This document shows positions 34,412-49,616 of a stretch of 64,000 nt of DNA, piece by piece. Positions within the stretch are counted from its first letter, which is position 1. Every line of letters starts with the position of its first letter. The position numbers and the translations under genes were made by a program. Origin of the DNA: Candidatus Puniceispirillaceae bacterium (GTDB lineage Bacteria; Pseudomonadota; Alphaproteobacteria; Puniceispirillales; Puniceispirillaceae); NCBI GenBank assembly GCA_049889795.1, contig JBMHCS010000003.1, positions 101,149-165,148 of the forward strand, written 5' to 3'. Below the pieces are notes generated by a model. It did not search any database. It was not told where the DNA came from and saw only the letters and a program-made list of their open reading frames with translations.

Positions 34412-35395
34412 TTACCGCGTGGCAAGGATGATTTTGGGCGGCGCATGCCCTTCGTGAATATCCAGAAATGCCTGCGCCCCGGCATCAAGATCACGTATTT
34501 CGGTCCAGCCGGCGCCGCTGACGGCACCCTCTATCAAAAGACGTAGCGCCTCGGCAAAATCATCCGGCCGATAACAGTAGGTGCCCGTAAAGGTAATGTC
34601 CTGCAATGTGAACCGGCGCGTATCAAGCCCCGGCTCGGAATCTTCAAGCCCGACATGCACAATGATTCCCCCTGGCCGGACAATGGCCGATGCCGCCATC
34701 CGGGTGATGCCAGACCCGACCGCATCAAGCACAATATCGGCCGAACTGTCCGCTGCCGGCATGGCAACAGGATCGTAACTTTCACCAATATCCAGCCCGT
34801 CAAGCCGCTGGCGGCGCAGCGCATTCGGCTCGGCAATGCGAATATGCGGCCGTCCATAGGCTTTCAACACAAGCCCGCATAAAAGACCGATCGCGCCACC
34901 GCCCAGAATAACAATGCGCGCCGCTGCATCGCCGCTATGCGCGATGGCAACACGCACTGTCCGCACAGCCACCGCCAGGGGTTCGGCAAGCGCGGCATCG
35001 GAAAAGGACAGCCCGGCATCAATTTCGGTTACATTGCGATCGGGTACCACCACCTGTTCGGCAAAGGCACCGGGAAGCCGCATCCCAATCAATTCACGCG
35101 CCGCACAGAGATGCGAGCGCCCGGATTGGCAAAAGTCACATATCTGGCAGCTGATCAACGGGTTGATGGCAACAGGCTTGCCAGCATGGGGGCCGTTCCG
35201 CGCCGTGCCGACGGCTTCGTGCCCAAGAATCAGTGGCGGTACACGGCGGGCATCCTTGCCATGCCAGGCATGCATGTCAGAGCCGCAAATGCCGCAGAAT
35301 GCCAGGTCAACAAGCGTTTCTTCCGCTGCCGCAACAGGGGCGTCGGTATCGCGTATTTCGCTGGCCTTCGTGCCGGTATAGAACAATGCTTTCAT
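34412..35395 (-). CDS. hpsP: Zn-dependent DHPS 2-dehydrogenase, HpsP-like
   Basis: MKAL.YTG, GICGSDMHA..G.DARR..PLILGHE, C..C..C...C Zn site; follows an hpsO-like gene. Confidence 0.8.
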   Translation of the reverse strand: MKALFYTGTKASEIRDTDAPVAAAEETLVDLAFCGICGSDMHAWHGKDARRVPPLILGHEAVGTARNGPHAGKPVAINPLISCQICDFCQSGRSHLCAARELIGMRLPGAFAEQVVVPDRNVTEIDAGLSFSDAALAEPLAVAVRTVRVAIAHSGDAAARIVILGGGAIGLLCGLVLKAYGRPHIRIAEPNALRRQRLDGLDIGESYDPVAMPAADSSADIVLDAVGSGITRMAASAIVRPGGIIVHVGLEDSEPGLDTRRFTLQDITFTGTYCYRPDDFAEALRLLIEGAVSGAGWTEIRDLDAGAQAFLDIHEGHAPPKIILATR

Positions 35396-36153
35396 TTCGC
35401 GGTGAATCCCCCGTCAACCATCAGAATCTGCCCGGTCACATAGTCGGCTGCCGGTGAACACAGGATCAGCAACGGCCCGTCAATATCCTCCAGCCGGCCA
35501 TTACGACCAATGCACGTCTGCGCCGCATTACGTTCTGCGCGAGCATCATCAGCAAACACGGCGGCTGTCAGCTCTGTCGGGAAAAAGCCGGGGCCAATCG
35601 CATTGGTGTTGATCCCGTCCGCCGACCACGCCTCGGCCATGGCCCGGGTCATCTGTGCGACACCGCCCTTCGAGGCCCCATAGGCAATGCCACCCGGAAA
35701 AGCGCGCGCGCTTTGCAGAGATGCAAAATTGACAATACGCCCCCAGCCGCGCGCCTTTATATGCGGCAGAAGCCGTTGGCTGAGCAAAAAGGGAACTGTC
35801 AGATTCAGCCACAATGTCTGCTGCCATCCCTCTGCCGTCACCTCATCGGCCGGCTGACGCAGATTGACACCCACCGCATGAACAATAATGTCAGGCGCAC
35901 CAAAGGGCATGACCAGCTTGTCACACAGCGCATCCAGCCCGGCCTCATCCATCAGGTCGGCGGCCACATAGGCGCGCTTTCCGGCGCCGGATGCCGCCCA
36001 TTGTGCCAGCATGTCCTCGCGGCGCGCCACCCCGACCACTGCAGCCCCGGCCGCCGCAAGCGCATCGGCGCATCGCCTTCCAAGACCGCCACTTGCGCCC
36101 GTAATACAGGCGACGCGCCCGGCAACATTGAATTTGTCCGACCCTGTCGACAT
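35392..36153 (-). CDS. hpsO: SDR DHPS 2-dehydrogenase, HpsO-like
   Basis: FGAPDI.VHA.GVN.RQ.AD.VT.EGW, WGRIVNFASLQ..RAFPGGIAYGASKGG, ARAERNAAQTCIGRNG, VDGGFTAK closely resemble Roseobacter HpsO as I recall it. Confidence 0.85.
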   Translation of the reverse strand: MSTGSDKFNVAGRVACITGASGGLGRRCADALAAAGAAVVGVARREDMLAQWAASGAGKRAYVAADLMDEAGLDALCDKLVMPFGAPDIIVHAVGVNLRQPADEVTAEGWQQTLWLNLTVPFLLSQRLLPHIKARGWGRIVNFASLQSARAFPGGIAYGASKGGVAQMTRAMAEAWSADGINTNAIGPGFFPTELTAAVFADDARAERNAAQTCIGRNGRLEDIDGPLLILCSPAADYVTGQILMVDGGFTAK

Positions 36154-36189
36154 AGGCTGGTGGTGCCCCTTACTGCTAGCCTGCCCTGC

Positions 36190-36744
36190 CTAGCCGGCGA
36201 CGGCGGTCATGAAACGTTCCTTGATCATCACCGGGTCCTTGTCGATGACTGGCACCTTGATATTGCCGGACTCGCATTTGGACACAATGACCGTCGCCTT
36301 GTCGCCGGCCAGAGCGGCCTTGACCGCATCTGCCGTGTCCTCGGCACTGCATTCCACCACATAGTCACAGCCGCAAGCCGTAGCCACATCGGCGAGAGAT
36401 GTCTTCAGGCCAGCATAGGTCGTCTGGTCACCGGTCGATCCATAGCTGCCATTATCGATGATCAGCAGGATGAAATTGGGAACCTGATTATTGGCGATGG
36501 TCGGCAAGGTGCCGAGATTCATCAACACTGACCCGTCACCGTCAATCGCAATGACCTTTTTCGGCTGTGCCAGCGCGAGGCCAAGGCCAATGGACGAGGC
36601 CAACCCCATCGTGCCAAGCATATAGAAATTGGTTGGCTGGTCATCCAGCAGGTGCAATTCCTGACTTGGCAGGCCGATATTGGTCACAACCAGTTCATCA
36701 GAAATAAGCGGAATCAGCATTTTCAGTACGTCACTGCGAATCAT
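36190..36744 (-). CDS. comE: Sulfopyruvate decarboxylase beta subunit
   Basis: NIG.PSQEL, NFYMLGTMGLASSIGLGLA, ThDP motif DGDGS...DNGSYGSTG.Q. Confidence 0.9.
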   Translation of the reverse strand: MIRSDVLKMLIPLISDELVVTNIGLPSQELHLLDDQPTNFYMLGTMGLASSIGLGLALAQPKKVIAIDGDGSVLMNLGTLPTIANNQVPNFILLIIDNGSYGSTGDQTTYAGLKTSLADVATACGCDYVVECSAEDTADAVKAALAGDKATVIVSKCESGNIKVPVIDKDPVMIKERFMTAVAG

Positions 36745-36748
36745 TGTC

Positions 36749-37246
36749 TCAATATCCCTTCCAGAAGCTGGCATCCATCAGCACCGCGACGGGTTTGCGC
36801 GCCATATAGGCGTGGTTGAGAATGGCTGATAATTCGGCTGCATCCTCTTCTTTGCGGAAATGGTAGGTGGGGATCGCCAACCGGTCGAGAAGCGCCTTCG
36901 TATGGACCGCCATTTCGACCTGGCAGGCGACAGGCTCGCCAATCTCGCCACGATAGCTGATCAGCATCGGCAGCGGGATCCTGTAATACTGGATCAGTGT
37001 GGTCAACGCATTGATGGTCACACCGATAGCCGTATTCTGCATGATGATGGCGGGGCGTTTGCCGCCCATAAAGGCACCGGCGCACAGCCCCATCCCCTCA
37101 TCCTCACGGTTTGACGGGACATGAATCATGTCCTCCGACTGCTCAATCTTCTCAATCACCCCGGCAAGCTGCTTGCAGGGCACGGTCGTTACAAAGCCGA
37201 CATCATTGGCTTTCAGCGCGTCCATGATTACGTCATTTACTGACAT
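36749..37246 (-). CDS. comD: Sulfopyruvate decarboxylase alpha subunit
   Basis: TVPCKQL, REDEG.G.CAGA.MGG, MQNT.IG..IN, SYRGE.GE....Q..M. Confidence 0.9.
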   Translation of the reverse strand: MSVNDVIMDALKANDVGFVTTVPCKQLAGVIEKIEQSEDMIHVPSNREDEGMGLCAGAFMGGKRPAIIMQNTAIGVTINALTTLIQYYRIPLPMLISYRGEIGEPVACQVEMAVHTKALLDRLAIPTYHFRKEEDAAELSAILNHAYMARKPVAVLMDASFWKGY

Positions 37247-37282
37247 TCCGGTTACGTCCTCTTCACTTGGTTTCTGTCAGTT

Positions 37283-37381
37283 TCAGGCAAGATTCTCGCC
37301 CGGAAAATATTTGCGCAGGCGTGCGTCTCCCGCGCGTGCGTGGGCATCCATACCTTCCAGCCGCGAAATACGTGCCGCCGC
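37283..37381 (-). pseudogene. hpsN: C-terminal remnant of sulfopropanediol 3-dehydrogenase HpsN (histidinol-dehydrogenase fold)
   Basis: Frame reads AAARISRLEGMDAHARAGDARLRKYFPGENLA*, matching the HpsN C-terminus (ARISRLEGME.HAR.AD.RL.KYFP); no start or upstream part. Confidence 0.8.
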
Positions 37382-37497
37382 CTGAATTCCGGGGCCAGCC
37401 CGGCGGCGGCCATACCGATCACCAGCGCATTGTCTCCCGACAGAATGATATCGGCAAAAACAATCTGCAGAATATCCAACGCCCATTCCAGCGTCAT
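37375..37497 (-). pseudogene. 5' fragment of a TerC/YjbE-family membrane protein
   Basis: ATGA overlap with the GMC stop; ILQIVFADIILSGDNALVIGMAAAGLAPEFRRR is the TerC signature, then homology stops after about 41 codons. Confidence 0.8.
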
Positions 37498-39089
37498 GCC
37501 GCATCCTCCAGAATCATGTCAGCAGCCTTTTCGCCAATCATCATGGCGGGCGCATTGGTATTGCCAGATGTGATCACCGGCATGATCGAGGCATCAGCGA
37601 CCCGCAAATTCTCGACACCATGGACGCGAAGCCGCGGATCAACGACCGCCATGGCATCAGTGCCCATCTTGCAGGTGCCTGTGGGGTGATAGATGGTGGT
37701 TGCCGTATTCCGCACCCATTCAAGGATCGCCGCATCATCATCCGGCACGGACGGGCCAGGCGCATGTTCCTCGGTGATCAGGTCGCGCACTGGCTCTGCC
37801 CGGCAGATCTCGCGCGCCATCCTGACCCCAGCGACAATCGTGTCGCGGTCGGTCTGCGCTGACAGATAATTCGGATGAATGCTGATATAGTCATCCGGCG
37901 AGGCCGATTTCAGCGCCAGATGCCCGGTACTTTGCGGTCGCAACTGCAACACCGATGCGGTAAAGGCGGAAAAGGGATGGGTGCCGGCGCCCGGACGGTC
38001 GGCGCTGAAAGGCTGGATATGGAACTGGATATCCGGTGTCTCCAGCTCTGGCCGCGTTTTCAGGAAGCCGGTGCCAAGACTGGCTGCCATGGCCATGGGC
38101 CCGCGGCGCGACAACGCATATTGCAGCGCAATCCTCACATATTGTAACGGATGACGGGTTTCGATGTTGATTGTGCTTGCTGTGGTTTTGAAAACCGGAC
38201 GCGCCTGCAGATGATCCTGCAAATTCTGCCCGACGCCGGCCAGATCATGAATGACCAAGATATCCTTGTCGCGCAACGCCGCACCATCCCCGATGCCCGA
38301 CAGCATCAGCAGATGCGGTGATCCCAACGCACCTGCCGACAGCACAACTTCGCGGCCAGCCAGCAGCGTGACATCATGGCCATTCTGACGATAGACGACA
38401 CCGGTAGTACGCCGTCCTTCCATCACCAGATGGCGGATTTGGGCACCCGTAATGATTTTCAGATTCTTGCGCTGGCGTGCCGGTTTCAGAAAGGCGGCCG
38501 CGCTGCTGCACCTCTGGCCACGCCGCATCGTCATCTGAAACTGGCCGACACCTTCCTGATCGGTGCCATTATAATCATCAGTTCGCGGATATCCCAGCCC
38601 GGCAGCAGCATCGACCCAGGAATCCACCACATCACGGCGCAACCAGCCTGACGATACATTCAAAGGCCCGCCTTTACCGCGTACCTCTGACGCGTCGCCT
38701 TCCCAATGTTCCATGCGGCGGAACAGCGGCATCACGTCATCCCAGCCCCAGCCAACATTGCCAAGCTGGCGCCAATGGTCAAAATCCTGCGGCTGGCCAC
38801 GGACATATAACAAACCATTGATCGAAGAACTGCCCCCCAGCACGCGGCCACGCGGCCACGCAATCGCACGCCCGTTCAGCCCCGGGTCCGGTTCCGTGTG
38901 GTAACGCCAGTCAGTGGCCGGGTTGCCCATCGTCTTGAAATAGCCAACCGGAATGTGAATCCATGGGGACCTGTCACGCCGACCCGCCTCGAGCAAGGCA
39001 ACATTGTATCTGCCACAGGCTGATAAGCGGTTCGCCAGAACGCATCCAGCAGAACCTGCACCGACTATCACAAAGTCGAACAGCACCAT
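37494..39089 (-). CDS. GMC oxidoreductase (choline dehydrogenase-like)
   Basis: GGAGG RBS; [54 protein letters not shown]. Confidence 0.92.
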   Translation of the reverse strand: MVLFDFVIVGAGSAGCVLANRLSACGRYNVALLEAGRRDRSPWIHIPVGYFKTMGNPATDWRYHTEPDPGLNGRAIAWPRGRVLGGSSSINGLLYVRGQPQDFDHWRQLGNVGWGWDDVMPLFRRMEHWEGDASEVRGKGGPLNVSSGWLRRDVVDSWVDAAAGLGYPRTDDYNGTDQEGVGQFQMTMRRGQRCSSAAAFLKPARQRKNLKIITGAQIRHLVMEGRRTTGVVYRQNGHDVTLLAGREVVLSAGALGSPHLLMLSGIGDGAALRDKDILVIHDLAGVGQNLQDHLQARPVFKTTASTINIETRHPLQYVRIALQYALSRRGPMAMAASLGTGFLKTRPELETPDIQFHIQPFSADRPGAGTHPFSAFTASVLQLRPQSTGHLALKSASPDDYISIHPNYLSAQTDRDTIVAGVRMAREICRAEPVRDLITEEHAPGPSVPDDDAAILEWVRNTATTIYHPTGTCKMGTDAMAVVDPRLRVHGVENLRVADASIMPVITSGNTNAPAMMIGEKAADMILEDAA

Positions 39090-39230
39090 TTCCTCCAAAA
39101 TATTATTTTTTAAGACTTTTTTTCTCTTTTATTGTTAATATGCTATAGTTGAAACCATGAGCCCGTCAATGAAACAAAGTGGAATGCGTTGGAAAATGTC
39201 GATTGCGTGCATTATTCGGCCGATTATGCC

Positions 39231-40016
39231 GTGACCAATATTGATGATGATCATATGCCGCCCAATGTCCGGGTGATATATCTGCTGGAAGTGATGGCGC
39301 GGATTGGCCAGCCGGTAACACCGACCGAATTGAACAGCCATATCGGATGGCCAAAACAGACCATTCACCGGTTATGTCAGACGATGCTGAAGGCCGGCAT
39401 TCTCGAACGTCACAACAGGCGGCTCTATCCAGGCCGCCGCGCCTTGATGATGGCAACCGGGCTGGTGAACCAGGCGGCCGGCCATATCGGTGTTCATCAG
39501 GTGCTGCAGCGTGTGTCCAGACGTTTTGGTGAAACCGTCAATTTCGTGCGTCCAGAACCACAGGGCATGATCTATGTTGATCGTGTCGAAACGAACTGGG
39601 CGTTCCGCGTCGCCCTGCCCGTTGGCACACATGTGCCCTTTCACTGTACCGCCAGCGGCAAATTATTTATGTCGAGCCTGTCATCGGCCCGCCGTCGGGC
39701 CATGGTCGAGGCGCTGCCTCTGGATGCCCTGACGCCAAACACACATACCGGCCCTGACAGCCTTGCCCGTGAACTCGTTTCAATCCGCAAGGATGGGTAC
39801 AGTCTTGACCGCGAGGAATTTCATATTGGTATGGTGGCCATCGCTGTTCCCGTGACCGATACCGAGGGCCGGTTCTATGCCGCGCTTGCCGTTCATGGGC
39901 CAAACCAGCGTTTTTCACTCGAATCCGCGCGCAACAGCTTTGACGGGCTGTGCGAGGCCGCTGCCCAGATTTCTACGATTCTGTTCGAAAAAGATACGCC
40001 GGATTCAGCTGGCTGA
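39231..40016 (+). CDS. IclR-family regulator
   Basis: HTH PKQTIHRL; GETVN, P.HCTASGK, GY.LD.EEF..GM.AIAVP. Start uncertain (39189, 39231 or 39255). Confidence 0.9.
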   Translation: MTNIDDDHMPPNVRVIYLLEVMARIGQPVTPTELNSHIGWPKQTIHRLCQTMLKAGILERHNRRLYPGRRALMMATGLVNQAAGHIGVHQVLQRVSRRFGETVNFVRPEPQGMIYVDRVETNWAFRVALPVGTHVPFHCTASGKLFMSSLSSARRRAMVEALPLDALTPNTHTGPDSLARELVSIRKDGYSLDREEFHIGMVAIAVPVTDTEGRFYAALAVHGPNQRFSLESARNSFDGLCEAAAQISTILFEKDTPDSAG

Positions 40017-40172
40017 CCGCTCGGCGATGGCACGCTGACGGCGCGCCTCTTCCAGCATCTCCATGCCCAGCACACAGATCAGGTAATAGGCCGCAAACTG
40101 GTCCAGCAGCGCATCGGTCAGCGGCGTGTCAGACACATCTTCGGCCGGGGCAGATGCGTGTGGATCGGTCAT
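40005..40172 (-). CDS. Unannotated 55-aa protein coupled to the di-heme peroxidase
   Basis: ATGA overlap at 40169-40172; MTDPHASAPAEDVSDTPLTDALLDQFAAYYLICVLGMEMLEEARRQRAIAERSAS*; codon usage like neighbours (CTG, GCC, GAT). Confidence 0.6.
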   Translation of the reverse strand: MTDPHASAPAEDVSDTPLTDALLDQFAAYYLICVLGMEMLEEARRQRAIAERSAS

Positions 40173-41518
40173 TTGTCGACGGGCAGCCCTGACGGCACAG
40201 TGTCAGGCACCCCGAACAGTGGATTGCTGGTGCTTGCGCCGGTCAATGCACCCATGAAATCTACCAGCGCTGCCACTTCATCATCGGCAAGCGCACGCGG
40301 CGTGATATCGATTTTCGCCCGCACCCGTGCAATTTCAAATCTGTCCTGCCAGACCACAAAATCAATCGGGGCCAGCCAGGGCGCCGCGGGCAGTTGCGCA
40401 AAATCCTGCTGCCAGGCATCAAAGCTGCCCTGTGGATCGAGATGGTGCCGGATGATGCCTTCCAGGTCTGGATAGGCCCCATTATGCCCATAAGGCGCTG
40501 TCAGCGCGATATTGCGAAGTGACGGGGTGCGAAAACGATAGGCATCAGCCAGATCATCGGTTTCGCCCATACGGCCCACATCGCGTGTATAGGGGTCAAA
40601 CCGGCGGGTCCGTCCCGGACCAAATGGCGGTATCGCCAGCGCATGGAATTTCTGATCGGTCAGTAGAGCCCCGCTGTGGCAATCAGCACAGCCCGCCTTG
40701 CCATAGAACAGATTGGCACCACGTCGCTGCATCGGCGTCAGCGCCGTTTCGTCTCCTGTCAGAAACGCATCAAAGGGAGAATCATCCGATCGGAATTCGA
40801 TGGCAATAAACGCGGCCAGCGCCTCGCCAATATGGGCAATGGTGACCTCCTCGGCCGTGTCAATATCGTCAAAAGTCTCGACGAACATCTGGCCATATTC
40901 CGGAATTACTCGCACGCGCTTGGCGAGAATGGGCCAGACAGCATCAATCCGGTCATGCAAGGCGCCGGCCACCTCGTTCTCTTTTGGATTACCGGCCATC
41001 TCAAACTGTGCCGTCATGGGAAAGATAGCCTGTGTGCCCAAAACGGTTTCCAGACCATGTGGCAGCCATTCCTCGGCCGGTGTGTTGAACCCGTTATCGA
41101 AATCATCTGCAATCGCCAGCCGCCCGTCATGAAACAGGACGGTGAATTTCTTGGCCGCCAAATTCCACAAGGCGCTGGCATTGCGCGGCACGCGTTTGCG
41201 TATCCGCGACTCGCCGGACCCCGGATGCCGGTCTGGCCCAACACCGACACCGCCTTCACCAATGCCAAGCGATAATCCGTCCGTCCCACCAAACCGGTGG
41301 TGGTGGCAGGTGCCACAAGAAATATTTCGATTGCCGGAAAGAATCTTGTCGTAAAAAAGCAACTGTCCGATCTTGGCGCGCTGCATTGAAAAACTATGAT
41401 AATCTGCATCCGTCATCGGGGCAGGCAGCAGATGGGAACTGGCCGCGCCGGCAGCGGATGACACTGTGGCACCCAGCAGAAATACGAGAGCAGAAATTAC
41501 ATGAAACGTCTTTTGCAT
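40169..41518 (-). CDS. Di-heme cytochrome c peroxidase / MauG-superfamily protein
   Basis: Signal peptide; G..LFYD..LSG...ISCGTCH, GA.LFYGKAGCADCH, FRTPSLRN...TAPYGHNG. Confidence 0.9.
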   Translation of the reverse strand: MQKTFHVISALVFLLGATVSSAAGAASSHLLPAPMTDADYHSFSMQRAKIGQLLFYDKILSGNRNISCGTCHHHRFGGTDGLSLGIGEGGVGVGPDRHPGSGESRIRKRVPRNASALWNLAAKKFTVLFHDGRLAIADDFDNGFNTPAEEWLPHGLETVLGTQAIFPMTAQFEMAGNPKENEVAGALHDRIDAVWPILAKRVRVIPEYGQMFVETFDDIDTAEEVTIAHIGEALAAFIAIEFRSDDSPFDAFLTGDETALTPMQRRGANLFYGKAGCADCHSGALLTDQKFHALAIPPFGPGRTRRFDPYTRDVGRMGETDDLADAYRFRTPSLRNIALTAPYGHNGAYPDLEGIIRHHLDPQGSFDAWQQDFAQLPAAPWLAPIDFVVWQDRFEIARVRAKIDITPRALADDEVAALVDFMGALTGASTSNPLFGVPDTVPSGLPVDK

Positions 41519-42016
41519 CGCACAGCAACGGCCCCGTTTGTATCAATCGCCTTTATCTTGCATCTGACTCTTGCCATGACGCAACCGGCAGTTGCGGAAA
41601 TTGAGCACGCGCGTGATCTGATGGAAGCCAACCGCTTTGAAGAAGCCTACCGGGAGTTATGGCCAGCAGCGCGATCCGGCAACGCCGATGCCGAGGAGCT
41701 GATCGGTGTAATGTACGCAATGGGGCTTGGCGTCGAGCAGGATTACAGGCGTGCCTTTGAATGGTATCTGCGCTCGTCAATGAAAGGTCATCCAGGTGCG
41801 CAATCCGGTATTGGCTGGTACTATGAGGTTGGCCTTGGCATGCCGTCGCCCGATCTTGTGCGTGCATATATGTGGTACGTTCTTTCTGCCATAGGCGGCG
41901 ATCCCGACGCCGCGATCAGCCAGGAAGAAGTCATCAAGAAAATGACACCCGAGCAGATCAAAGAAGCGCATGAATTAATTGATGACTATCGTGTGTGGTT
42001 GTATCCCTTCCGGTAG
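41501..42016 (+). CDS. Secreted Sel1-repeat protein
   Basis: Signal-like N-terminus; GNADA...IG.MY..GLGVEQD..RAFEWY, GHPGAQ..IG.YY..G.G...D.VRAYMWY. Confidence 0.88.
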   Translation: MKRLLHRTATAPFVSIAFILHLTLAMTQPAVAEIEHARDLMEANRFEEAYRELWPAARSGNADAEELIGVMYAMGLGVEQDYRRAFEWYLRSSMKGHPGAQSGIGWYYEVGLGMPSPDLVRAYMWYVLSAIGGDPDAAISQEEVIKKMTPEQIKEAHELIDDYRVWLYPFR

Positions 42017-42020
42017 GTCG

Positions 42021-42725
42021 TCACACCTTGATCGGTTTGGCAAACCTCTTTGGGCGCCCTGTTTCCGGGTCATTGATCGGACCTGAAGAATATTGAGTGA
42101 CATAGGCTCTTCGCGGGAATGGCGTGATATTCTCACCTGATCGGTGGAGGGTGAGGCTAGAAAATGCGACAATGGTACCAGCGGCGCACTCGATAGGAAC
42201 GCCAGGGTCTTTACCAAAATAGCCGTTGAGTTCATTGGTTGCATCCTGCCACTCATGTGGGTCAACTTCGGGCAACAGATCAATGTTACGGGGCTGGATG
42301 TAGATGCAACCATTATCAACCGTTGCATCATCAAGGGCAATCCAGATGGTCAGATAAGCAGTATGGTCAAAACCGACATATGCACTGTCCTGATGCCAAG
42401 CAAAACTGGCACCTTCATCTGCCGCCTTCACAACGAATTGTTCGTTAAACAGCATTGCGTTCTGAACACCGCACGAAGTTGCAATGCAGCCAATAGTCTG
42501 GCCTGTAACAAAGTCCTCTAGTGCCGGGAAGTCAGCATGCCGGTGTCTCAGAAAGCGCCTTTTCTCGCCAAGACCGATTTTATGCGTTGTCCCACCACCA
42601 TCTTCGAACGGCTCGTTGAGCAATTCATCACAGACATGTCGTAAGGTGGCCAATTCGTTCTGTGACAGCGCCTGCTCAAACAGCACATAACCCTGTTCTC
42701 TATAAGTCTCACGAATATTTTTCAT
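42021..42725 (-). CDS. PhyH-family Fe(II)/2-oxoglutarate dioxygenase
   Basis: Y..QGY, FAWHQD (HxD), WIALDDAT..NGC, LHRSG.N....RRAY. Confidence 0.9.
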   Translation of the reverse strand: MKNIRETYREQGYVLFEQALSQNELATLRHVCDELLNEPFEDGGGTTHKIGLGEKRRFLRHRHADFPALEDFVTGQTIGCIATSCGVQNAMLFNEQFVVKAADEGASFAWHQDSAYVGFDHTAYLTIWIALDDATVDNGCIYIQPRNIDLLPEVDPHEWQDATNELNGYFGKDPGVPIECAAGTIVAFSSLTLHRSGENITPFPRRAYVTQYSSGPINDPETGRPKRFAKPIKV

Positions 42726-42817
42726 CAATTTTACTTCCTTGCTGGATCAAATGTTGATGTCATTATAGATCGTGTGACATCAAATTCTTTTCAGGAAAAT
42801 ATCAATTTATTGCAAAA

Positions 42818-43624
42818 ATGGTCGAATCAGCTCCCCATCCCGAAGTTGTTCCCGCCCCCGGCGGGTTGATGTGGCGCCGGTCCTGGCGCCGACGTCACGC
42901 TGCCGCACCCGAAGCTCATCAAGAACTGGTTGTCCTAATAGGCATCACTGGCAACGCGTCTTACCTGATTGATGGTGTCGTGCATGAGGTCAGACGTGGC
43001 ACACTTGTTTGGGCTCTTGCAGGACAGCAGCATTTTCTACTTTCGGAAAGTGCTGAATTTGATATGTGGGTGGTGCTTGTCTCCCGCCGTATCGTAACGC
43101 AGGACCCAGACATGCCACCACAGCACATTTCGGACACCGGCGCCGCATTACCGCCACGCGTTCTAACCGCCGAGGCCTTCGAAGCATTGCATACAATTGC
43201 CGTTGCACAAACAGACGCAACAACCATTTGCACCAAGGCGGCCGGTTTGCGCCTTTGGCTTGCCAAGGCCTGGGCGCAATGGCAAATAGCTGCTACTGAT
43301 GCTGGCCGCCACATCCACCCGGCTGTAAGCAGAGCGGCGCAAATCTGGCGTCAATACCCTGATCGAAATCTAAAGGCAGTCGCCCGCGACGCTGGCTTGT
43401 CACCCGGTAGGCTAGGCCGTCTGTTCAGAGCACAGATTGGAAAGGATGTTGTGACATATCGGACTGAACAGAAAATCAGACGGTTTGAAGCGATCAAAGC
43501 CCGATACCCTAGGCTGTCGCTTACGTCAGCGGCGCTTGATGCAGGATTTGGCAGTTACACCCAATTCTATCGGGCATGGCGCACTAGTTATGGCACACAT
43601 CCTAACGATCCAAAATTCAGGTAA
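42818..43624 (+). CDS. AraC-family regulator
   Basis: Cupin N-terminus (H.EL...GNASY...H); C-terminal A..AGLS..RL.RLF and ALDAGFGSY.QFYR HTH motifs. Confidence 0.88.
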   Translation: MVESAPHPEVVPAPGGLMWRRSWRRRHAAAPEAHQELVVLIGITGNASYLIDGVVHEVRRGTLVWALAGQQHFLLSESAEFDMWVVLVSRRIVTQDPDMPPQHISDTGAALPPRVLTAEAFEALHTIAVAQTDATTICTKAAGLRLWLAKAWAQWQIAATDAGRHIHPAVSRAAQIWRQYPDRNLKAVARDAGLSPGRLGRLFRAQIGKDVVTYRTEQKIRRFEAIKARYPRLSLTSAALDAGFGSYTQFYRAWRTSYGTHPNDPKFR

Positions 43625-44757: not shown

Positions 44758-46047
44758 TTAATCGACAAATCCTGTCAGTCGAGGAATTGTCATCGAAATT
44801 GCCGGAAAATACGTTATCAGGAAAATCGTGACGATTTCTACTGCCAGAAACGGCAATATGGCACGTGCAATATTTTCGATCCGCTCTCCGGACACGGATG
44901 ATGCTACAAACAACACCAATCCCATTGGCGGTGTGGCAAGGCCCACCGTCAAATTCACACTCATGATTATAGCAAAATGCACAGGGTCAATGCCCATGCT
45001 TACGAATATCGGCCCAAGGATAGGGCCAAGAATAATGATAGCCGGACCAGCATCTAAAAACATGCCTACAATAAATAGCAGTAGGTTAATCAAAAACAGG
45101 AGCATCAATGGATTTTCTGAAATCGAGAGAATGAACTCCGCCAGTATTTCGGGCGCATGGCTTAGGCTGACAACAGTCTTGAAGGCCATAGCAGCACCTA
45201 CCAGTAATAGCACCACGGCTGAGGTCAGTGCCGCACGGCCTAACACATCAGGTAGATCACCGGGCCGGATTGTACGCATTACAAACATCCCGATGACCAC
45301 CGCGTAGCCAACCGCCACCGCCGCCGCTTCCGTCGGCGTAAACACCCCGCCTAAAATGCCTCCCAGAATAATGACTGGCGTCATTAGTGGGAAAAAGGCC
45401 TTCAAACTGGCGCCTCCACGCTCGCGCCAGCTATAGCGGCGGGTCGCCACTGGAAAATCATAGCGATCCGCCATCCAGGTCACGGTCAGCATCAGCCCTA
45501 CTCCAACAAGGATGCCAGGCACGATCCCGGCAAGAAACAATGCGGCAACGCTTTCACCCATCACATAGGCATAGATGATCATTATGCCTGAAGGTGGAAT
45601 GATCGGGCCAATTACTGAACTTGCAGCAGTGATCGCTGCCGCAAATCTACGGGTATAACCCTGCTTTTCCATTGCAGGTATGAGCATGGATCCAAGGGCC
45701 GAGGTGTCGGCAACGGCCGAACCGGAAAGACCGGCAAACAGCATTGATGACAGGATATTCACATGTGCCAGACCACCACGCAGATGTCCCATCATCGCCT
45801 GGGCAAATTCCACCAGCCGCTCCGTGATGCGGCTTCGGTTCATCAATTCACCAGCCAGCATGAAGAACGGTATCGCCATCAACGGAAAGCTGTCCATGCC
45901 ATTATAGACATTTCGATATAACAGAGCTATGTCGCGTTCCTGCCCATTCAGCCAAAGTAAGAGCCCAGGCGCAGCAAGCAACGCAAACAATACCGGCAGG
46001 CCAAGCAGCAGGAACACCAGAAAGACGGGAAGGAACCAGATCAGCAT
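44758..46047 (-). CDS. dctM: TRAP large permease
   Basis: SFPLMAIPFFMLAG, FAGLSGSAVAD, IIPPS, GVFTPTEA, GLATPPMG. Confidence 0.95.
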   Translation of the reverse strand: MLIWFLPVFLVFLLLGLPVLFALLAAPGLLLWLNGQERDIALLYRNVYNGMDSFPLMAIPFFMLAGELMNRSRITERLVEFAQAMMGHLRGGLAHVNILSSMLFAGLSGSAVADTSALGSMLIPAMEKQGYTRRFAAAITAASSVIGPIIPPSGIMIIYAYVMGESVAALFLAGIVPGILVGVGLMLTVTWMADRYDFPVATRRYSWRERGGASLKAFFPLMTPVIILGGILGGVFTPTEAAAVAVGYAVVIGMFVMRTIRPGDLPDVLGRAALTSAVVLLLVGAAMAFKTVVSLSHAPEILAEFILSISENPLMLLFLINLLLFIVGMFLDAGPAIIILGPILGPIFVSMGIDPVHFAIIMSVNLTVGLATPPMGLVLFVASSVSGERIENIARAILPFLAVEIVTIFLITYFPAISMTIPRLTGFVD

Positions 46048-46634
46048 TATGTTGGCTCCGCCATTTTGGTGCCGGGTACCGGACGCAGCCGGTCATCACC
46101 GCCCATCAGCGACAAGACGGACCGCAAAATCAGCTCGACATTCACGCTGATCATCAGGCAGACCCCGACAAATAACGACATATACATCCAGGCCAGCTTC
46201 AGCTTTTGCGACTTCATACCAATGATCGACAGGGGAAGTCGCAGCGATGAGCTGGAAAACAACCAGCCAGAATTGACATGGTTCCACCCAAGCTGCGCGG
46301 CGATAACCAGCACGAGAAGTGACAGGCACAGCAATAGAATGGAAACAATCCTGACGGCCGGTGCCGGAAACAGCTCCAGCACCCCGGTAATGGCGACCAT
46401 GCCACCCTGGCGCAGCGCCACAGGTGCCATCAGCCCGGTCAGCCACAGCATCATGAAACGCGCTGCCTCATCCGGCCAGGGCAACGCATTGTTCAGGACA
46501 TAGCGGAAGAACACCTGCAAGAGGATGACAATCACCATAATGGCGATTGCCGCAACCGAGAGATTCCGGCCAATACGGCCGGCCCAGTCGTTGAACCATT
46601 CAAGCGGTTTCAATATCGTCAGCAAAAATGCCAT
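46047..46634 (-). CDS. dctQ: TRAP small permease
   Basis: QVFFRYVLN.AL.WPDEAARF.M.W. Confidence 0.92.
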   Translation of the reverse strand: MAFLLTILKPLEWFNDWAGRIGRNLSVAAIAIMVIVILLQVFFRYVLNNALPWPDEAARFMMLWLTGLMAPVALRQGGMVAITGVLELFPAPAVRIVSILLLCLSLLVLVIAAQLGWNHVNSGWLFSSSSLRLPLSIIGMKSQKLKLAWMYMSLFVGVCLMISVNVELILRSVLSLMGGDDRLRPVPGTKMAEPT

Positions 46635-46709: not shown

Positions 46710-47600
46710 TCAGGGCACCTCTTCGCCAAGAGCTGCCGTGTAAATTTCGTACCATGTCTGGCGATCAATGGTCAGTGCGGCCGCCTTTTCAAAGCCTGCG
46801 ATACGTTCCAGATTGTTGGTGCCCATGACCGGAATGATCCGCGCGGGATGCGCCAGCAACCAGGCCACGGAGACCGACGTCACGTCACTATCCAGGCGCG
46901 CCGCCACCCCGGCAAGCGCATCATGGAGCGGCCTGTTGGCCGCGTCAAACAGGGTCCCGCCCGCCAGAGGCGACCAGGCCATTGGCAGCACGCCATGCTG
47001 CTGCAGATAGGCGATATCACCATTTGTGAACGGCGCATGATGCAACACGCTGATTTCGATCTGGTTGGTCACAATCGGTGTCTTCATCGCCGATTGCAGC
47101 AAATCTATATCCCACGGGCGGAAGTTGGATACACCGACCGCCCTGATCTTGCCGGACGATACAAGATCATCCAGCGCACCGCCGGTCTCGTGGTGATCCA
47201 TCATCGGATCGGGACGGTGGATGAGCAACAGGTCTATCTGGTCAATGCCCATCAACTGAAGCGAGGCATCGACCGAACTCGTGATATGGGCGCGTGATGT
47301 GTCATAATATTTGACCCGCGCCGCCGCATGCCGACCCGCCGGGGCAACAATATCGCATTTGGTGACAATTTCGATCTGGTCCCGCAGTCCGGTGCCGCGC
47401 AGCGCATTGCCAAGCACTTCTTCGGCCATGTATCCACCATAGATATCCGCCTGATCCATGGTGGTGATCCCCTGCGCAAGGCAGGATTCAATCTTGGCCT
47501 GCACATGGGCTGGCGAGGTGTCACTGTCATCGGCAAGTCGCCACATGCCATAAACAATCCGCGACATCGACAAATCTGTGCCAAGAGCAACCCGTTCCAT
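46710..47600 (-). CDS. smoB: Aldo/keto reductase, 6-oxo-glucose reductase-like
   Basis: SRIVYGMWRL, DQADIYG.Y, EIVTKC, LLIHRPDP, GVSNF, NQIE.S, MAWSPL.GG; TAATG overlap with smoC. Confidence 0.85.
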   Translation of the reverse strand: MERVALGTDLSMSRIVYGMWRLADDSDTSPAHVQAKIESCLAQGITTMDQADIYGGYMAEEVLGNALRGTGLRDQIEIVTKCDIVAPAGRHAAARVKYYDTSRAHITSSVDASLQLMGIDQIDLLLIHRPDPMMDHHETGGALDDLVSSGKIRAVGVSNFRPWDIDLLQSAMKTPIVTNQIEISVLHHAPFTNGDIAYLQQHGVLPMAWSPLAGGTLFDAANRPLHDALAGVAARLDSDVTSVSVAWLLAHPARIIPVMGTNNLERIAGFEKAAALTIDRQTWYEIYTAALGEEVP

Positions 47601-48757
47601 TATCGTCTTTCTCCTGCGGCGAGTGGTGTTGCCGGTGTGCTGGCCGGCACGCGCCCATAAATATCGGGAAGCGAGCAGCCTTTCAGATGCGGCATCACAA
47701 GTTTGCCAAAATGGGCACATTCCTCAATATGCGGATAGCCTGAAAGAATAAAGGCCCGAATGCCCATCTTCCGATACGCTTCCAGTTCCGACAGGATCTG
47801 GTCAGCTGACCCGACAAGCGCCGCCCCGCACCCCGAACGCGCACGCCCGACCCCGGTCCATAGATGCGGTTCGATGAACCCTTCCATATCCGCGATTTCG
47901 CGATTGCGCGACTGATGCGACACCCCCAGCGAAGTGCTGTCCAGCGCCCGCTCCCGGATCTCGGTGCCCTTATTATCATCCAGCTTTGAAACAAGCTCGG
48001 CTGCATATTCGCGCGCCTCGGCCTCGGTATCGCGCACAATGACATGGCAGCGCAGGCCGTAATCCAGTGTCCGTCCATAAGATGAAGCGCGTTCATGCAC
48101 GGCCTTCATGCGCGACTCAAGATCGGGTCTGGTTTCCGGCCACATCAGATAGACATCACAGAATTCACCGCACAGATCGAGCGCCGATGGCGAGTAGCCG
48201 CCGAAATAGAGGAGTGGCCCCCCATTCTGCTGATAGGGACGCGCCGGATCTGTGTTCAGCCCTTCAAACTGGTAAATCTCGCCATCATGGTTGATCTCAT
48301 CCTGCGACCAGGCCTGTTTGAGAATCTGCACCACTTCGCGCGAACGATGATAGCGATAGGCGCTTTCCTCGGTCTGGCCGGGAAAGTCAGAGCTGATAAT
48401 ATTGACTGTCAGCCGGCCTTCCAGCATGTGATCCAATGTCGCCAATGTGCGCGCCAGCATGATGGGTTGCATTTCTCCACACCGCACCGCCGCCAAAAGA
48501 TTGATTTTATGTGTCAGCGGGGCACATCCGGCAACAAAGGACAATGTGTCTTGCCCAACCTGATAGGATGACGGGCAGAGAATATTACCGAAACCCTGTG
48601 ATTCGGCTTCGCGCACGATGTCCGAACAATGTGCCCAGCTTGACCGTAATGATCCGTCCGGCACCCCGAGATAGCGATAATCATCCGAGCATAATGCCGC
48701 AAACCAGGCATATTCTGCAGCATCAAGATCCGGCGATGTAATTGGCACGACCGTCAC
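47600..48757 (-). CDS. smoC: Sulfoquinovose monooxygenase (LLM class)
   Basis: GTG start with GGAGAGG RBS; TVVP.TS.DLDAAE..WF.ALCSDDY.YLGVPDG.LRSS, CPSSYQVGQD, RARSGCGAALVG, PATPL..GER closely match Agrobacterium SmoC as I recall it. Confidence 0.92.
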   Translation of the reverse strand: MTVVPITSPDLDAAEYAWFAALCSDDYRYLGVPDGSLRSSWAHCSDIVREAESQGFGNILCPSSYQVGQDTLSFVAGCAPLTHKINLLAAVRCGEMQPIMLARTLATLDHMLEGRLTVNIISSDFPGQTEESAYRYHRSREVVQILKQAWSQDEINHDGEIYQFEGLNTDPARPYQQNGGPLLYFGGYSPSALDLCGEFCDVYLMWPETRPDLESRMKAVHERASSYGRTLDYGLRCHVIVRDTEAEAREYAAELVSKLDDNKGTEIRERALDSTSLGVSHQSRNREIADMEGFIEPHLWTGVGRARSGCGAALVGSADQILSELEAYRKMGIRAFILSGYPHIEECAHFGKLVMPHLKGCSLPDIYGRVPASTPATPLAAGERR

Positions 48758-48903
48758 CTGTCCGACCTCTCCTTTCAAAGGCAACCGCGCTGACGGCTGC
48801 GACATCTTTGTATTTGCGTATCAGGCGATAATAGGTAAATCAATAGTATATCAATTTACCTGATTGTTTGTCCTGCATCAGGATTTACCAGGAGCCGCTT
48901 TGC

Positions 48904-49605
48904 ATGTCCGATGCTGCCAGCCCACCCATTTACCAGCAAATTGCCGGCATGCTGCGCCGCGAAATCGCCGGCGGGCAACTCGTTGTCGGCCAGCCGCTGG
49001 CCCCGGAACGCCAGCTGGCAAAGCAGTTTGGCGTGTCTGTCGTGACGCTGCGCAAGGCACTGCACCTGCTGACGGAAGAGGGCATGCTGCGCCGCCGACA
49101 GGGATCGGGCAATTACGTCAGTGCGCGGGCCGACCCGGAACAGAAATACGGCTTTTTCCGGATCGAGACACTGGCGGGCGGCGGCTTGCCGACGGCGCAG
49201 ACACTGTCGGTTGACTATCAGCATCGACCAGCAGACATGCCGGATACCGGAACCGGCACCCATAGCTGGCGAATCAGGCGGCTGCGCTTTCTTGATTCGG
49301 TGCCGGCGGTGCTGGAGGATATTTGGCTGGACGCGGCCCGCGCATCCGATCTTGATGTCAGCATGCTGCCAGAATCGCTATATCACTTTTATCAGTCGCA
49401 GCTGGGATTCTGGATTTCCCGCACCGAAGACAGCGTCGGGGTCGGCGCTGTTCCCGACTGGGCACCTGCCAGATTTGCTCTTGAACCGGCAAGCCCATGT
49501 GGGGTAGTGGACCGCATTGCATGGGCGCAGGACGCAACGCCTGTCGAATATTCGCGAAGTTGGTTTAATCCCGCCATTGCACGCTATGTGGCGCGGCTGA
49601 TCTAG
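48904..49605 (+). CDS. smoD: GntR/HutC-family regulator (SmoD-like)
   Basis: P.YQQIA..LR, PER.LA..FGVS..TLRKAL, RRQGSGNYV, UTRA domain; divergent from smoC. Confidence 0.8.
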   Translation: MSDAASPPIYQQIAGMLRREIAGGQLVVGQPLAPERQLAKQFGVSVVTLRKALHLLTEEGMLRRRQGSGNYVSARADPEQKYGFFRIETLAGGGLPTAQTLSVDYQHRPADMPDTGTGTHSWRIRRLRFLDSVPAVLEDIWLDAARASDLDVSMLPESLYHFYQSQLGFWISRTEDSVGVGAVPDWAPARFALEPASPCGVVDRIAWAQDATPVEYSRSWFNPAIARYVARLI

Positions 49606-49616
49606 AAGAGGTGCTT

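Follow-up and report, generated by a model that had tools for sequence, protein, structure and literature searches.

Sulfoquinovose (SQ) is a sulfosugar of plants and algae and ranks among the largest organosulfur pools. Among the closest described systems to the locus reported here, the di-heme enzyme MbnH oxidises its partner MbnP to a kynurenine copper site, and in TPAT systems (T. pallidum TatT/TatP) a secreted helical-repeat protein is encoded beside a TRAP binding protein. To our knowledge, canonical cytochrome c peroxidases (bCCPs) need no dedicated partner gene. Published SQ clusters list a transporter, glycosidase, regulator and cytoplasmic enzymes (PMC12780224, PMC10507154), and smoC transcripts in Tara Oceans samples stand at a median of 1.6% of the single-copy gene level (PMC12780224). 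A periplasmic di-heme enzyme or Sel1-repeat (SLR) protein goes unmentioned in the cluster descriptions consulted, and a literature search joining sulfoquinovose with cytochrome c peroxidase returned nothing relevant. The pair of such proteins described here appears to be a so far undescribed accessory of the SQ pathway; it offers a genetically well-defined entry into a large uncharacterised bCCP/MauG clade and may bring to light a periplasmic step, or a protective mechanism, by which marine bacteria take up sulfosugars.

The window, as we call the whole stretch of DNA analysed, comprises 64,000 nt of Candidatus Puniceispirillaceae bacterium (SAR116-like; GCA_049889795.1, JBMHCS010000003.1, positions 101,149-165,148). 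The organism is not a Roseobacter. The window carries an SQ monooxygenase locus, the roles of its genes being assigned after PMC12780224 and PMC10507154:

43672-44754, minus strand: TRAP transporter DctP (binding protein, TRAP-P), part of the SQ/SQ-glycerol (SQGro) importer
44758-46047, minus strand: TRAP transporter DctM, part of the same importer
46047-46634, minus strand: TRAP transporter DctQ, part of the same importer
46710-47720, minus strand: aldo-keto reductase (AKR), SmoB-like, SQ monooxygenase-pathway gene
47600-48805, minus strand: luciferase-like monooxygenase (LLM), SsuD-like/SmoC-like, SQ monooxygenase-pathway gene
48868-49605, plus strand: GntR regulator, SQ monooxygenase-pathway gene
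49611-50711, plus strand: Gfo/Idh/MocA protein, SqgA-like, SQ monooxygenase-pathway gene

Beside the importer lie the pair and two further genes:

40169-41518, minus strand: di-heme protein of the CCP/MauG superfamily, 449 aa (Pfam PF03150, E 4e-32)
41501-42016, plus strand: SLR protein, hereafter Sel1, 171 aa (Pfam Sel1, PF08238, E 1.8e-14)
42021-42728, minus strand: PhyH-family dioxygenase, between Sel1 and TRAP-P
42818-43624, plus strand: AraC regulator, between Sel1 and TRAP-P

Synteny across loci gives a conserved gene order of Gfo-GntR-LLM-AKR-TRAP-Sel1-diheme. The PhyH dioxygenase and AraC genes are a lineage-specific insertion separating Sel1 from TRAP-P, present in one locus only (L003) among those compared; in locus L075, whose di-heme protein is 99% identical to that of the window, Sel1 almost adjoins TRAP-P.

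The di-heme and Sel1 genes stand head-to-head, with the first 18 nt of each overlapping on opposite strands, and the divergent secreted Sel1 neighbour remarked on in a preliminary description of this DNA proved to be a general feature, adjacent and head-to-head in 77 of 80 loci. Of the three unpaired loci, two are truncated at contig ends, and the other is an outlier at 47% identity. A di-heme orthologue at E ≤1e-150 was found in 79 of the 80 Sel1-positive Rhodobacterales genomes, and the Rhodobacterales orthologues directly adjoin Sel1 at every spot-checked place. The di-heme enzyme and Sel1 are a fixed, conserved two-gene unit. Beyond its orthologues, a homologue at 41% identity (L081) has a divergent 164-aa neighbour that is not Sel1-like and a second, also at 41%, has no neighbour of that 164-aa type, so that the pairing ends near ~50% identity. 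A di-heme paralogue at 44-49% identity is widespread, lacks Sel1 and stands alone; an FG-GAP/ASPIC-UnbV gene neighbours it in 4 of 8 loci, offering no functional clue.

Both proteins were called secreted from inspection of their N-termini. Sel1 matches PF08238 with two repeats (54 bits against a cutoff of 30.7) and has a signal peptide cleavable ahead of EIEHARD, giving a mature form of ~139 aa from position 41597. Its orthologues all retain the signal peptide, share 58 invariant columns and are more conserved than the di-heme enzyme (median identity 77% versus 63%). The predicted structure is an SLR solenoid (pLDDT 88), for which a fold search returned only generic SLR proteins (LpnE, c5321, LceB and Oxalobacter SLR proteins), and prediction of a complex of the di-heme protein (residues 28-449), Sel1 (residues 33-171) and two hemes gave a score of 0.21 against a mark of 0.32, which argues neither for nor against a complex. 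We also considered whether the ORF of 587-630 aa called in databases is the true gene and Sel1 an antisense artefact. This was rejected because Sel1 has a Pfam match and, at all loci, an undamaged reading frame that includes the signal peptide, because its third codon positions vary as in neighbouring genes, because the antisense frame has stop codons in the window and several other loci, and because the di-heme gene of the window has a clean ATG and signal peptide of its own.

Across the window's order, Sel1 and the TRAP binding protein occurred in the same 19 of 151 genomes, always within ~2 kb, and Sel1 was found in none of the 132 genomes without the SQ TRAP protein. Rhodobacterales comprised 80 genomes with both Sel1 and TRAP, 25 with TRAP only, none with Sel1 only and 146 with neither; all 80 Sel1-positive genomes fall among the 105 TRAP-positive ones, with the two genes ≤8 kb apart in 76 of the 80 and far apart in four. 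The pair is syntenic with SQ gene clusters in 61 of 80 loci, and all five genomes in which it seemed isolated still possess TRAP-P and SqgA orthologues, apparently ~10 kb from the pair in two of them if numbered contigs correspond to named records. In one genus, gain and loss of the pair coincide with gain and loss of the TRAP genes (6 of 12 genomes). By synteny and by presence and absence in two orders, the di-heme/Sel1 pair is strongly linked to SQ loci, and the finding named beforehand as speaking against such a link, a lack of enrichment near smo genes, does not apply. Several hosts are cultured: Roseibium hamelinense ATCC BAA-252, Ruegeria intermedia DSM 29341, Thalassobacter stenotrophicus CECT 5294 and Marivita species.

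The SQ importer is accompanied by the pair in about three-quarters of TRAP-positive Rhodobacterales genomes and in every TRAP-positive genome sampled from the SAR116 order. No pair was present in the 25 TRAP-positive, Sel1-negative Rhodobacterales genomes, yet nine of the ten checked among these had a complete smo cluster, indicating that the pair is not needed for the core SQ pathway. Such dispensability would suit a generic periplasmic scavenger of H2O2 that travels with the SQ island, without any SQ-specific role, because SQ is met in peroxide-rich phytoplankton surroundings. This explanation also draws on the intact peroxidase pocket and the His/Met or His/His electron-transfer heme described below, on the four of 80 Rhodobacterales genomes in which the pair is distant from the TRAP genes and on the widespread solitary paralogue at 44-49% identity. 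We judge it quite unlikely, however, given the complete absence of Sel1 from genomes without the SQ TRAP protein (0 of 146 and 0 of 132) and the joint gain and loss within one genus; confinement to SQ-TRAP genomes and a private SLR partner are unexpected for a generic defence gene. The bCCP-like explanation that we favour below meets objections too: as canonical bCCPs are partner-free, a plain peroxidase role fails to explain an obligate and extremely conserved SLR partner, and we know of no step in either SQ pathway that makes or needs periplasmic peroxide.

The pair occurs both in SQ-monooxygenase clusters and in sulfo-EMP2-like clusters with the order DeoR-TRAP-Sel1-diheme-PfkB-LacD aldolase-FucI-like-SqgA-epimerase-ALDH. 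A SmoC homologue was absent from six of six genomes carrying the pair in a sulfo-EMP2-like cluster, in a search whose positive control worked, which indicates that the pair follows SQ import and not monooxygenase by-products. The pair is thus independent of the SQ monooxygenase, and the idea, raised from the window, that it handles sulfite or peroxide released by that enzyme loses its footing with the pair equally embedded where no SmoC was found. A broader form of that idea has the enzyme oxidise a small molecule in the periplasm, either exported sulfite or a reduced or peroxidised sulfoquinovosyl compound, which would be detoxified or made importable. Heme peroxidases can in general oxidise sulfite, the enzyme is predicted to be periplasmic and is encoded beside the importer, and the preliminary description proposed a role of this kind. 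Even so, we consider this very unlikely: the sulfo-EMP2-like clusters end at sulfolactate in genomes lacking SmoC, neither an exporter nor a dehydrogenase for sulfite is conserved next to the pair in the clusters of this type examined, and the enzyme presents no candidate substrate-binding feature.

A third gene had been thought to join the pair:

40005-40172, minus strand: 55-aa ORF with a start codon that shares the sequence ATGA with the di-heme stop codon, its final 12 nt overlapping the convergent IclR gene

The overlap with the di-heme gene is real, occurring in the window and in one other locus (L006), and the core of the ORF appears coding-like, with six synonymous third-position changes over ~31 conserved codons. 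Both observations would favour a three-part system in which a translationally coupled microprotein completes the module, but the ORF follows the di-heme gene in only 2 of 81 loci. Homologues were found in 28 of the 151 genomes of the window's order and are distributed by genus independently of Sel1: of the 12 genomes of one genus (g7), 11 have the ORF and none has Sel1, whereas two others (g6 and g14) have Sel1 and lack the ORF. In six congeneric species the ORF and the pair lie on different contigs, and in seven same-genus loci, including five of those six species, the ORF sits upstream of a GMC oxidoreductase gene, IclR being present in some cases and absent in others; in other genera its gene contexts are different again. 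The three-part system, to which we attach next to no probability, is refuted by this distribution, which places the ORF outside the module. The 55-aa ORF is a real, conserved member of a separate SAR116 small-ORF family.

The di-heme protein begins with a signal-peptide-like N-terminus (MQKTFHVISALVFLLGATVSSAAGAAS) and scores 112.3 bits against PF03150 (CCP_MauG; cutoff 25.6). Its landmarks, with residue numbers, are as follows:

41303-41317, minus strand: heme motif 1, CGTCH, residues 68-72 (C68, C71 and H72 unchanged across all 51 sequences aligned)
41120-41134, minus strand: FHDGR, residues 129-133, His130 taking the position of the inter-heme Trp (MauG W93, PaCCP W94)
41000-41032, minus strand: distal pocket Q163, P167 and E173-M174, spaced as in MauG Q103/P107/E113
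40676-40690, minus strand: heme motif 2, CADCH, residues 277-281 (C277-H281), invariant in the alignment
40442-40444, minus strand: His359, predicted sixth ligand of heme 2, at the position of MauG Tyr294 and PaCCP Met275

The two heme motifs and the replacement of the inter-heme Trp by His, all noted beforehand, are present as described, and FHDGR recurs in 75 of 81 orthologues, the remainder having Q, W or A in place of His130. By homology, heme 1 (CGTCH) is probably the peroxide-reactive heme. Its distal pocket is well kept: E173 is invariant and Q163, P167 and M174 are at least 90% conserved in the alignment of 51 sequences, and the pattern Q-x3-P-x5-EM was found in 81 of 81 orthologues. 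N113, T340 and P342 match by alignment position the inter-heme Ca site of PaCCP (Asn79/Thr256/Pro258), giving a predicted metal site. Heme ligation was read from the alignment and not from structure coordinates. Residues 342-362 (PYGHNGAYPDLEGIIRHHLDP) contain His359, which a gap-free alignment to MauG residues 263-294 places opposite MauG residue 294; the missing Tyr of the MauG ligand region, suspected earlier, is thus a His at exactly the position of Tyr294. The best PDB match of the C-terminal fragment containing His359 is 3orv, the MauG Y294H mutant. Across the wider clade this position is conserved to at least 90%, and among the 81 orthologues it is mostly His, Met in ~14 and Tyr in none.

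An AF2 model (pLDDT 93.2) has the two-domain bCCP fold, and its top Foldseek matches, at probability 1.00, were 1IQC, 4AAM, 9QDT, 6E1C and MauG, with identities of 22-26% to these bCCPs, MauG and an MbnH-like protein. The best NCBIfam model was TIGR03981 (264.7 bits, covering residues 36-369, which falls short of the cutoff of 340); scores for TIGR03791 (MauG; 115.9 bits) and TIGR04039 (MbnH; 119.6 bits) fell below their cutoffs of 443.85 and 362.85. The enzyme is a member of a large, uncharacterised bCCP/MauG-superfamily clade, counted as 720 representatives at E ≤1e-30.

We favour, at about even confidence, a two-protein periplasmic accessory of the SQ/SQ-glycerol TRAP locus, in which a bCCP-like enzyme works with a dedicated SLR partner. 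Heme 1 would have a complete peroxide-activating site (Gln163, Pro167, Glu173) at which H2O2 or a hydroperoxide would be reduced, with electrons entering via heme 2, predicted to be six-coordinate with His/His ligation in the window and His/Met in some orthologues. The SLR protein may act as a docking adaptor or as the electron or oxidation target. With an intact heme 1 pocket, Ca-site residues and a putatively six-coordinate heme 2, a bCCP-like working is the most likely; we infer that the chemistry is of the peroxidase type, that the enzyme physically partners the SLR protein and that the pair has some role in SQ acquisition.

The same pair could instead be a maturase in the manner of MauG or MbnH, as first envisaged, with peroxide driving oxidation of a Trp, Tyr or His in a neighbouring periplasmic protein (Sel1 or the SQ-binding subunit of the TRAP importer) and so creating a site for a cofactor or ligand, with better SQ/SQ-glycerol capture as the result. 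An obligate small partner recalls MauG/preMADH, MbnH/MbnP and BthA/phosphatase; the partner is better conserved than the enzyme and rich in invariant aromatics; the pair tracks the importer and not the cytoplasmic pathway; and the best-scoring curated family, TIGR03981, is tied to a putative peptide-modification system, so that protein modification may still be entertained. Against it, the Sel1 aromatics mostly match the ordinary Sel1-repeat consensus, the inter-heme Trp is missing and the axial-ligand residue of the orthologues is always His or Met, never Tyr, which, with the intact peroxide pocket and Ca site, argues for bCCP-type chemistry over MauG-type bis-Fe(IV). Tyr-to-His mutants of MauG (Y294H) and BthA (Y463H) lose bis-Fe(IV), the BthA mutant retaining peroxidase turnover (PMC6405878). 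By analogy, the natural His359 is expected to prevent a bis-Fe(IV) state, a MauG-type form of which is unlikely in this enzyme. We regard the maturase explanation, so weakened, as unlikely. A related and speculative view, held with similarly low confidence, is that of a new kind of TRAP-importer accessory, whose enzyme matures the SLR protein or SQ-binding subunit (compare MbnH/MbnP) or converts an extracellular sulfoquinovosyl compound for uptake; if true, surface-ocean SQ acquisition would have a heme- and peroxide-dependent step absent from described sulfoglycolytic and sulfolytic pathways.

Canonical bCCPs (P. aeruginosa CcpA 1EB7, N. europaea 1IQC, MacA 4AAM, YhjA 9QDT) share the fold (Foldseek E ~1e-17), two c-type hemes, the Ca-site residues, the distal Gln/Pro/Glu-Met pocket and a periplasmic location with the window enzyme and, with ~14 of its orthologues, Met at the axial-ligand position. 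The window enzyme departs from them in having His359 for Met275 and hence no His/Met heme, His130 for the inter-heme Trp of FWDGR, Glu88 where a His71-type distal ligand would stand, an insertion of ~23 residues after FHDGR, an obligate SLR partner gene and a tie to SQ loci. With MauG, the TTQ maturase (3L4M), it shares the superfamily, the Q103/P107/E113 spacing and the possession of a partner protein of its own encoded alongside, but lacks equivalents of Tyr294 and Trp93, and no mau genes occur among the annotated neighbours of the di-heme gene. TIGR03981 (His-Xaa-Ser system-associated, MauG-like) is probably part of the same clade, the one with the RHH motif, although no radical-SAM or HxsA-D genes are among the annotated neighbours within the window. 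BthA of Burkholderia (6NX0) is a weak match (E ~1e-9) that forms bis-Fe(IV) and whose Tyr/His ligation differs from the ligation predicted for the window enzyme; like the window pair it has a conserved neighbouring secreted partner, and its own lack of the inter-heme Trp (Ser257) provides a precedent for that loss. Compared with the helical-repeat proteins of TPAT systems, the window SLR protein is much smaller and is transcribed from the other strand, and the di-heme enzyme always accompanies it. MbnH/MbnP (6E1C-type enzyme) likewise sets a di-heme enzyme and a small periplasmic partner beside an uptake system, but here the partner is an SLR solenoid and not an MbnP-type protein, and the import served is that of a sulfosugar instead of copper.

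The di-heme gene, its Sel1 (SLR) neighbour and a small ORF proposed earlier as a third member of their module are arranged in the window as follows, with the motifs of the di-heme protein given by residue:

40169-41518, minus strand: di-heme gene, 449 aa (Pfam CCP_MauG, E 4e-32)
41501-42016, plus strand: Sel1 gene, 171 aa (Pfam Sel1, E 1.8e-14)
40005-40172, minus strand: 55-aa ORF, its ATG overlapping the di-heme stop codon as ATGA
Residues 68-72 of the di-heme protein: CGTCH
Residues 129-133: FHDGR
Residues 277-281: CADCH
Residues 342-362: PYGHNGAYPDLEGIIRHHLDP

The 5′ ends of Sel1 and the di-heme gene overlap by 18 nt on opposite strands, and the 3′ end of the 55-aa ORF reaches 12 nt into a convergent IclR gene. 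To the right of Sel1 come, in order, a PhyH-family dioxygenase, an AraC regulator, the P, M and Q genes of the TRAP importer of sulfoquinovose (SQ), an aldo-keto reductase (AKR) and then onward genes, namely an SsuD-like luciferase-type monooxygenase, a GntR regulator and a Gfo/Idh/MocA protein. The marine sulfo-SMO cluster has the same gene make-up, with the GH188 sulfoquinovosidase SqgA and a TRAP importer (PMC12780224, PMC10507154). The nearest relatives of the window are SAR116/Puniceispirillaceae MAGs, not Roseobacters. Sel1 is separated from the gene for the binding protein, TRAP-P, by the inserted PhyH-family Fe/2OG dioxygenase and AraC genes (window 42021-43624), both of which were detected in this position in one related locus only (L003); the PhyH stop codon is 4 nt from that of Sel1, so that the convergent transcripts must overlap. 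Further along, the AKR ORF (46710-47720) and the 3′ end of the monooxygenase ORF (47600-48805) share 121 nt; the Pfam match to the AKR starts only at residue 54, and the real start of the AKR is therefore probably downstream of the listed one.

Gene content across genomes marks the di-heme–Sel1 pair as accessory to the SQ import locus, in line with the link drawn in the preliminary description. Every Sel1-positive genome also encoded TRAP-P, both in the window's order (19/19; none of the 151 genomes had either gene alone and 132 had neither) and in Rhodobacterales (80/80; of 251 genomes, 25 had TRAP-P only, none Sel1 only and 146 neither), counts that are descriptive, as related genomes are not independent. 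The two genes always lay within ~2 kb of each other in the window's order and ≤8 kb apart in 76 of the 80 Rhodobacterales genomes with both; counted by related locus, TRAP-P was ≤8 kb away in 61/80. Five genomes with a seemingly isolated pair all had TRAP-P and SqgA orthologues, which in two of them are apparently ~10 kb off, by coordinates, if the numbered contigs correspond to the named records. The pattern recurs across two orders and two pathway types as well as inside one genus, and in the window's genus the trait is patchy (6/12 genomes). Generic peroxide defence, as the role of the pair, would leave this strict co-occurrence unexplained. On the same genomic evidence, the pair is unnecessary for the core SQ pathway: 9 of 10 examined TRAP-positive, Sel1-negative genomes carried a complete smo cluster.

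The usual gene order is SqgA-GntR-SmoC-SmoB-TRAP QMP-Sel1-diheme, SmoC being the SQ monooxygenase. A second cluster type, found with the same TRAP importer in Roseobacter-group genomes (related loci L025, L036, L051, L052, L066, L068 and similar ones), runs DeoR-TRAP-Sel1-diheme and continues with genes for a PfkB kinase, a LacD-type aldolase, a fucose-isomerase-like protein and, after these, SqgA, an aldose epimerase and an aldehyde dehydrogenase, a gene set similar to that of the sulfo-EMP2 pathway. No SmoC homologue was found in 6/6 genomes with this cluster, in a search whose positive control, four smo-type genomes, gave matches at 73–80% identity. By this distribution the pair is independent of the SQ monooxygenase, and the earlier suggestion that it handles sulfite from that enzyme is not supported; sulfite handling as its role is at odds with the sulfo-EMP2-type clusters.

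The pair itself is nearly invariant in arrangement. The head-to-head orientation reported in the preliminary description was found in 77/80 related loci, and among the three non-adjacent loci two are truncated by contig ends and one is an outlier at 47% identity. A di-heme orthologue (E ≤ 1e-150) was present in 79 of the 80 Sel1-positive genomes among the 251 Rhodobacterales, adjoining Sel1 directly in all places spot-checked, and the pairing persists to ~50% di-heme identity and is absent at 41%. Median identity is 77% for Sel1 against 63% for the enzyme; 58 columns of the Sel1 orthologue alignment are invariant, and all orthologues carry a signal peptide, with cleavage before (E/D)(I/L)E. 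Sel1 is predicted to form a short SLR solenoid, and the model matches generic SLR proteins only. In every locus just 126–216 nt lie between the first mature Sel1 codon and codon 45 of the enzyme, so the signal-peptide coding regions of the two genes abut or overlap everywhere. A stand-alone di-heme paralogue (44–49% identity, ~440–480 aa) is widespread in Rhodobacterales (e.g. loci L108-L115), where it has no Sel1 neighbour, in 4/8 loci faces a convergent gene for an FG-GAP/ASPIC-UnbV protein and, in one lineage, lies ~13 kb from the SQ-linked copy.

The di-heme frame runs antisense to that of Sel1, codon for codon (window 41501-42016; related loci L001-L080). This antisense frame is open across the whole Sel1 gene in 54/78 loci, compared with ~26 expected from the TTA, CTA and TCA codon usage of neighbour genes, which accounts for database gene calls of 587–630 aa. 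Third positions of Sel1 codons are free to vary, four stops interrupt the antisense frame across the Sel1 region of the window, and an ATG, GTG or TTG immediately before the signal-peptide-like stretch is missing from several Rhodobacterales loci (L041, L053, L054, L067 and others).

The 449-aa ORF has a signal-peptide-like N-terminus and contains all of the CGTCH, CADCH and FHDGR motifs first described. It attains the cutoff of no curated NCBIfam model, scoring 264.7 bits with TIGR03981 (His-Xaa-Ser-associated MauG-like; cutoff 340), 119.6 bits with the MbnH model (cutoff 362.85) and 115.9 bits with the MauG model (cutoff 443.85), and its confident AlphaFold2 model (pLDDT 93.2, pTM 0.90) is about as close to bCCPs as to YhjA, an MbnH-like protein and MauG (22–26% identity). 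Residues 328-359 pair gap-free with MauG residues 263-294 in a HMMER alignment, and His359 therefore sits on MauG Tyr294, bearing out the earlier remark that Tyr is missing at this ligand position; the top PDB match of the same fragment is the Y294H MauG mutant, and an alignment to P. aeruginosa CCP, counted onward, places His359 on Met275. Position 359 is mostly His among the 81 orthologous loci, with ~14 Met, one Lys and no Tyr. Gln163, Pro167 and Glu173 are spaced as MauG Q103, P107 and E113, and in a 51-sequence alignment (down to 33% identity) Glu173 never changes, with Gln163 and Pro167 each conserved at 90% or more; the peroxide-pocket pattern is present in 81/81 orthologous loci, and Asn113, Thr340 and Pro342 fall at the positions of the Ca site. 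FHDGR occurs in 75/81 of these loci, the remainder having Q, W or A in place of His; across the wider clade (720 representatives at E ≤ 1e-30) an RHH motif is common and the FHDGR position is free to vary (W, F, A, G, Y and others).

In MauG and in BthA, a Tyr-to-His change abolishes bis-Fe(IV) formation, yet BthA Y463H retains peroxidase turnover, and BthA, too, is without the inter-heme Trp (PMC6405878). Together, the alignments, conservation and mutant literature point to a heme 1 that reacts with peroxide and a heme 2 of the ordinary six-coordinate, electron-transfer kind, and on our best reading the chemistry would be bCCP-like rather than MauG-like. A MauG/MbnH-like maturase role is less likely, being disfavoured by the heme-ligand data. 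We favour a periplasmic peroxidase of the bCCP type that has an SLR protein as its private partner and would act in the service of the SQ importer.

As a small ORF, the 55-aa frame is real: it has a conserved core (LTDALLDQFAAYYL..VL...LEEARRQ), its differences between the window and related locus L006 include six synonymous third-position changes, and homologues with open frames occur in 28/151 genomes of the order. The ATGA overlap with the di-heme stop codon also stands; membership of the module does not. In seven same-genus loci the ORF lies upstream of a GMC oxidoreductase, sometimes separated from it by an IclR gene, and no di-heme gene is near. Six congeneric species with both the ORF and Sel1 have them on different contigs, genus g7 has the ORF in 11/12 genomes and Sel1 in 0/12, genera g6 and g14 have Sel1 and lack the ORF, and in other genera the ORF precedes unrelated genes. 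Judged by these contexts, its position behind the di-heme gene in the window and L006 is a junction of two gene clusters. The ORF belongs to a SAR116 family of 52-105-aa ORFs (window 40005-40172; loci L085-L097) with an acidic N-terminus, a core PLTDxLLDxFAxYYLxxVLA and a basic tail, single-copy per genome and in front of different genes by genus (GMC oxidoreductase, threonine-synthase-like, LysE-like, or histidinol-dehydrogenase-like with a split TPP enzyme).

The left flank (34412-39098) encodes a split TPP enzyme (N domain 36749-37246, C domain 36190-36774), presumably similar to the sulfopyruvate decarboxylase ComDE, together with an SDR, a Zn-ADH, a GMC oxidoreductase (choline-dehydrogenase-like, 593 bits) and the IclR regulator. 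From family-level evidence, it may be a second, C3-sulfonate module adjoining the SQ cluster.

No description of the di-heme clade, its obligate SLR partner or its tie to SQ import was found in the literature covered, Liu et al. 2023 lying outside it. These three elements would be new, within a di-heme fold and superfamily that are already known.
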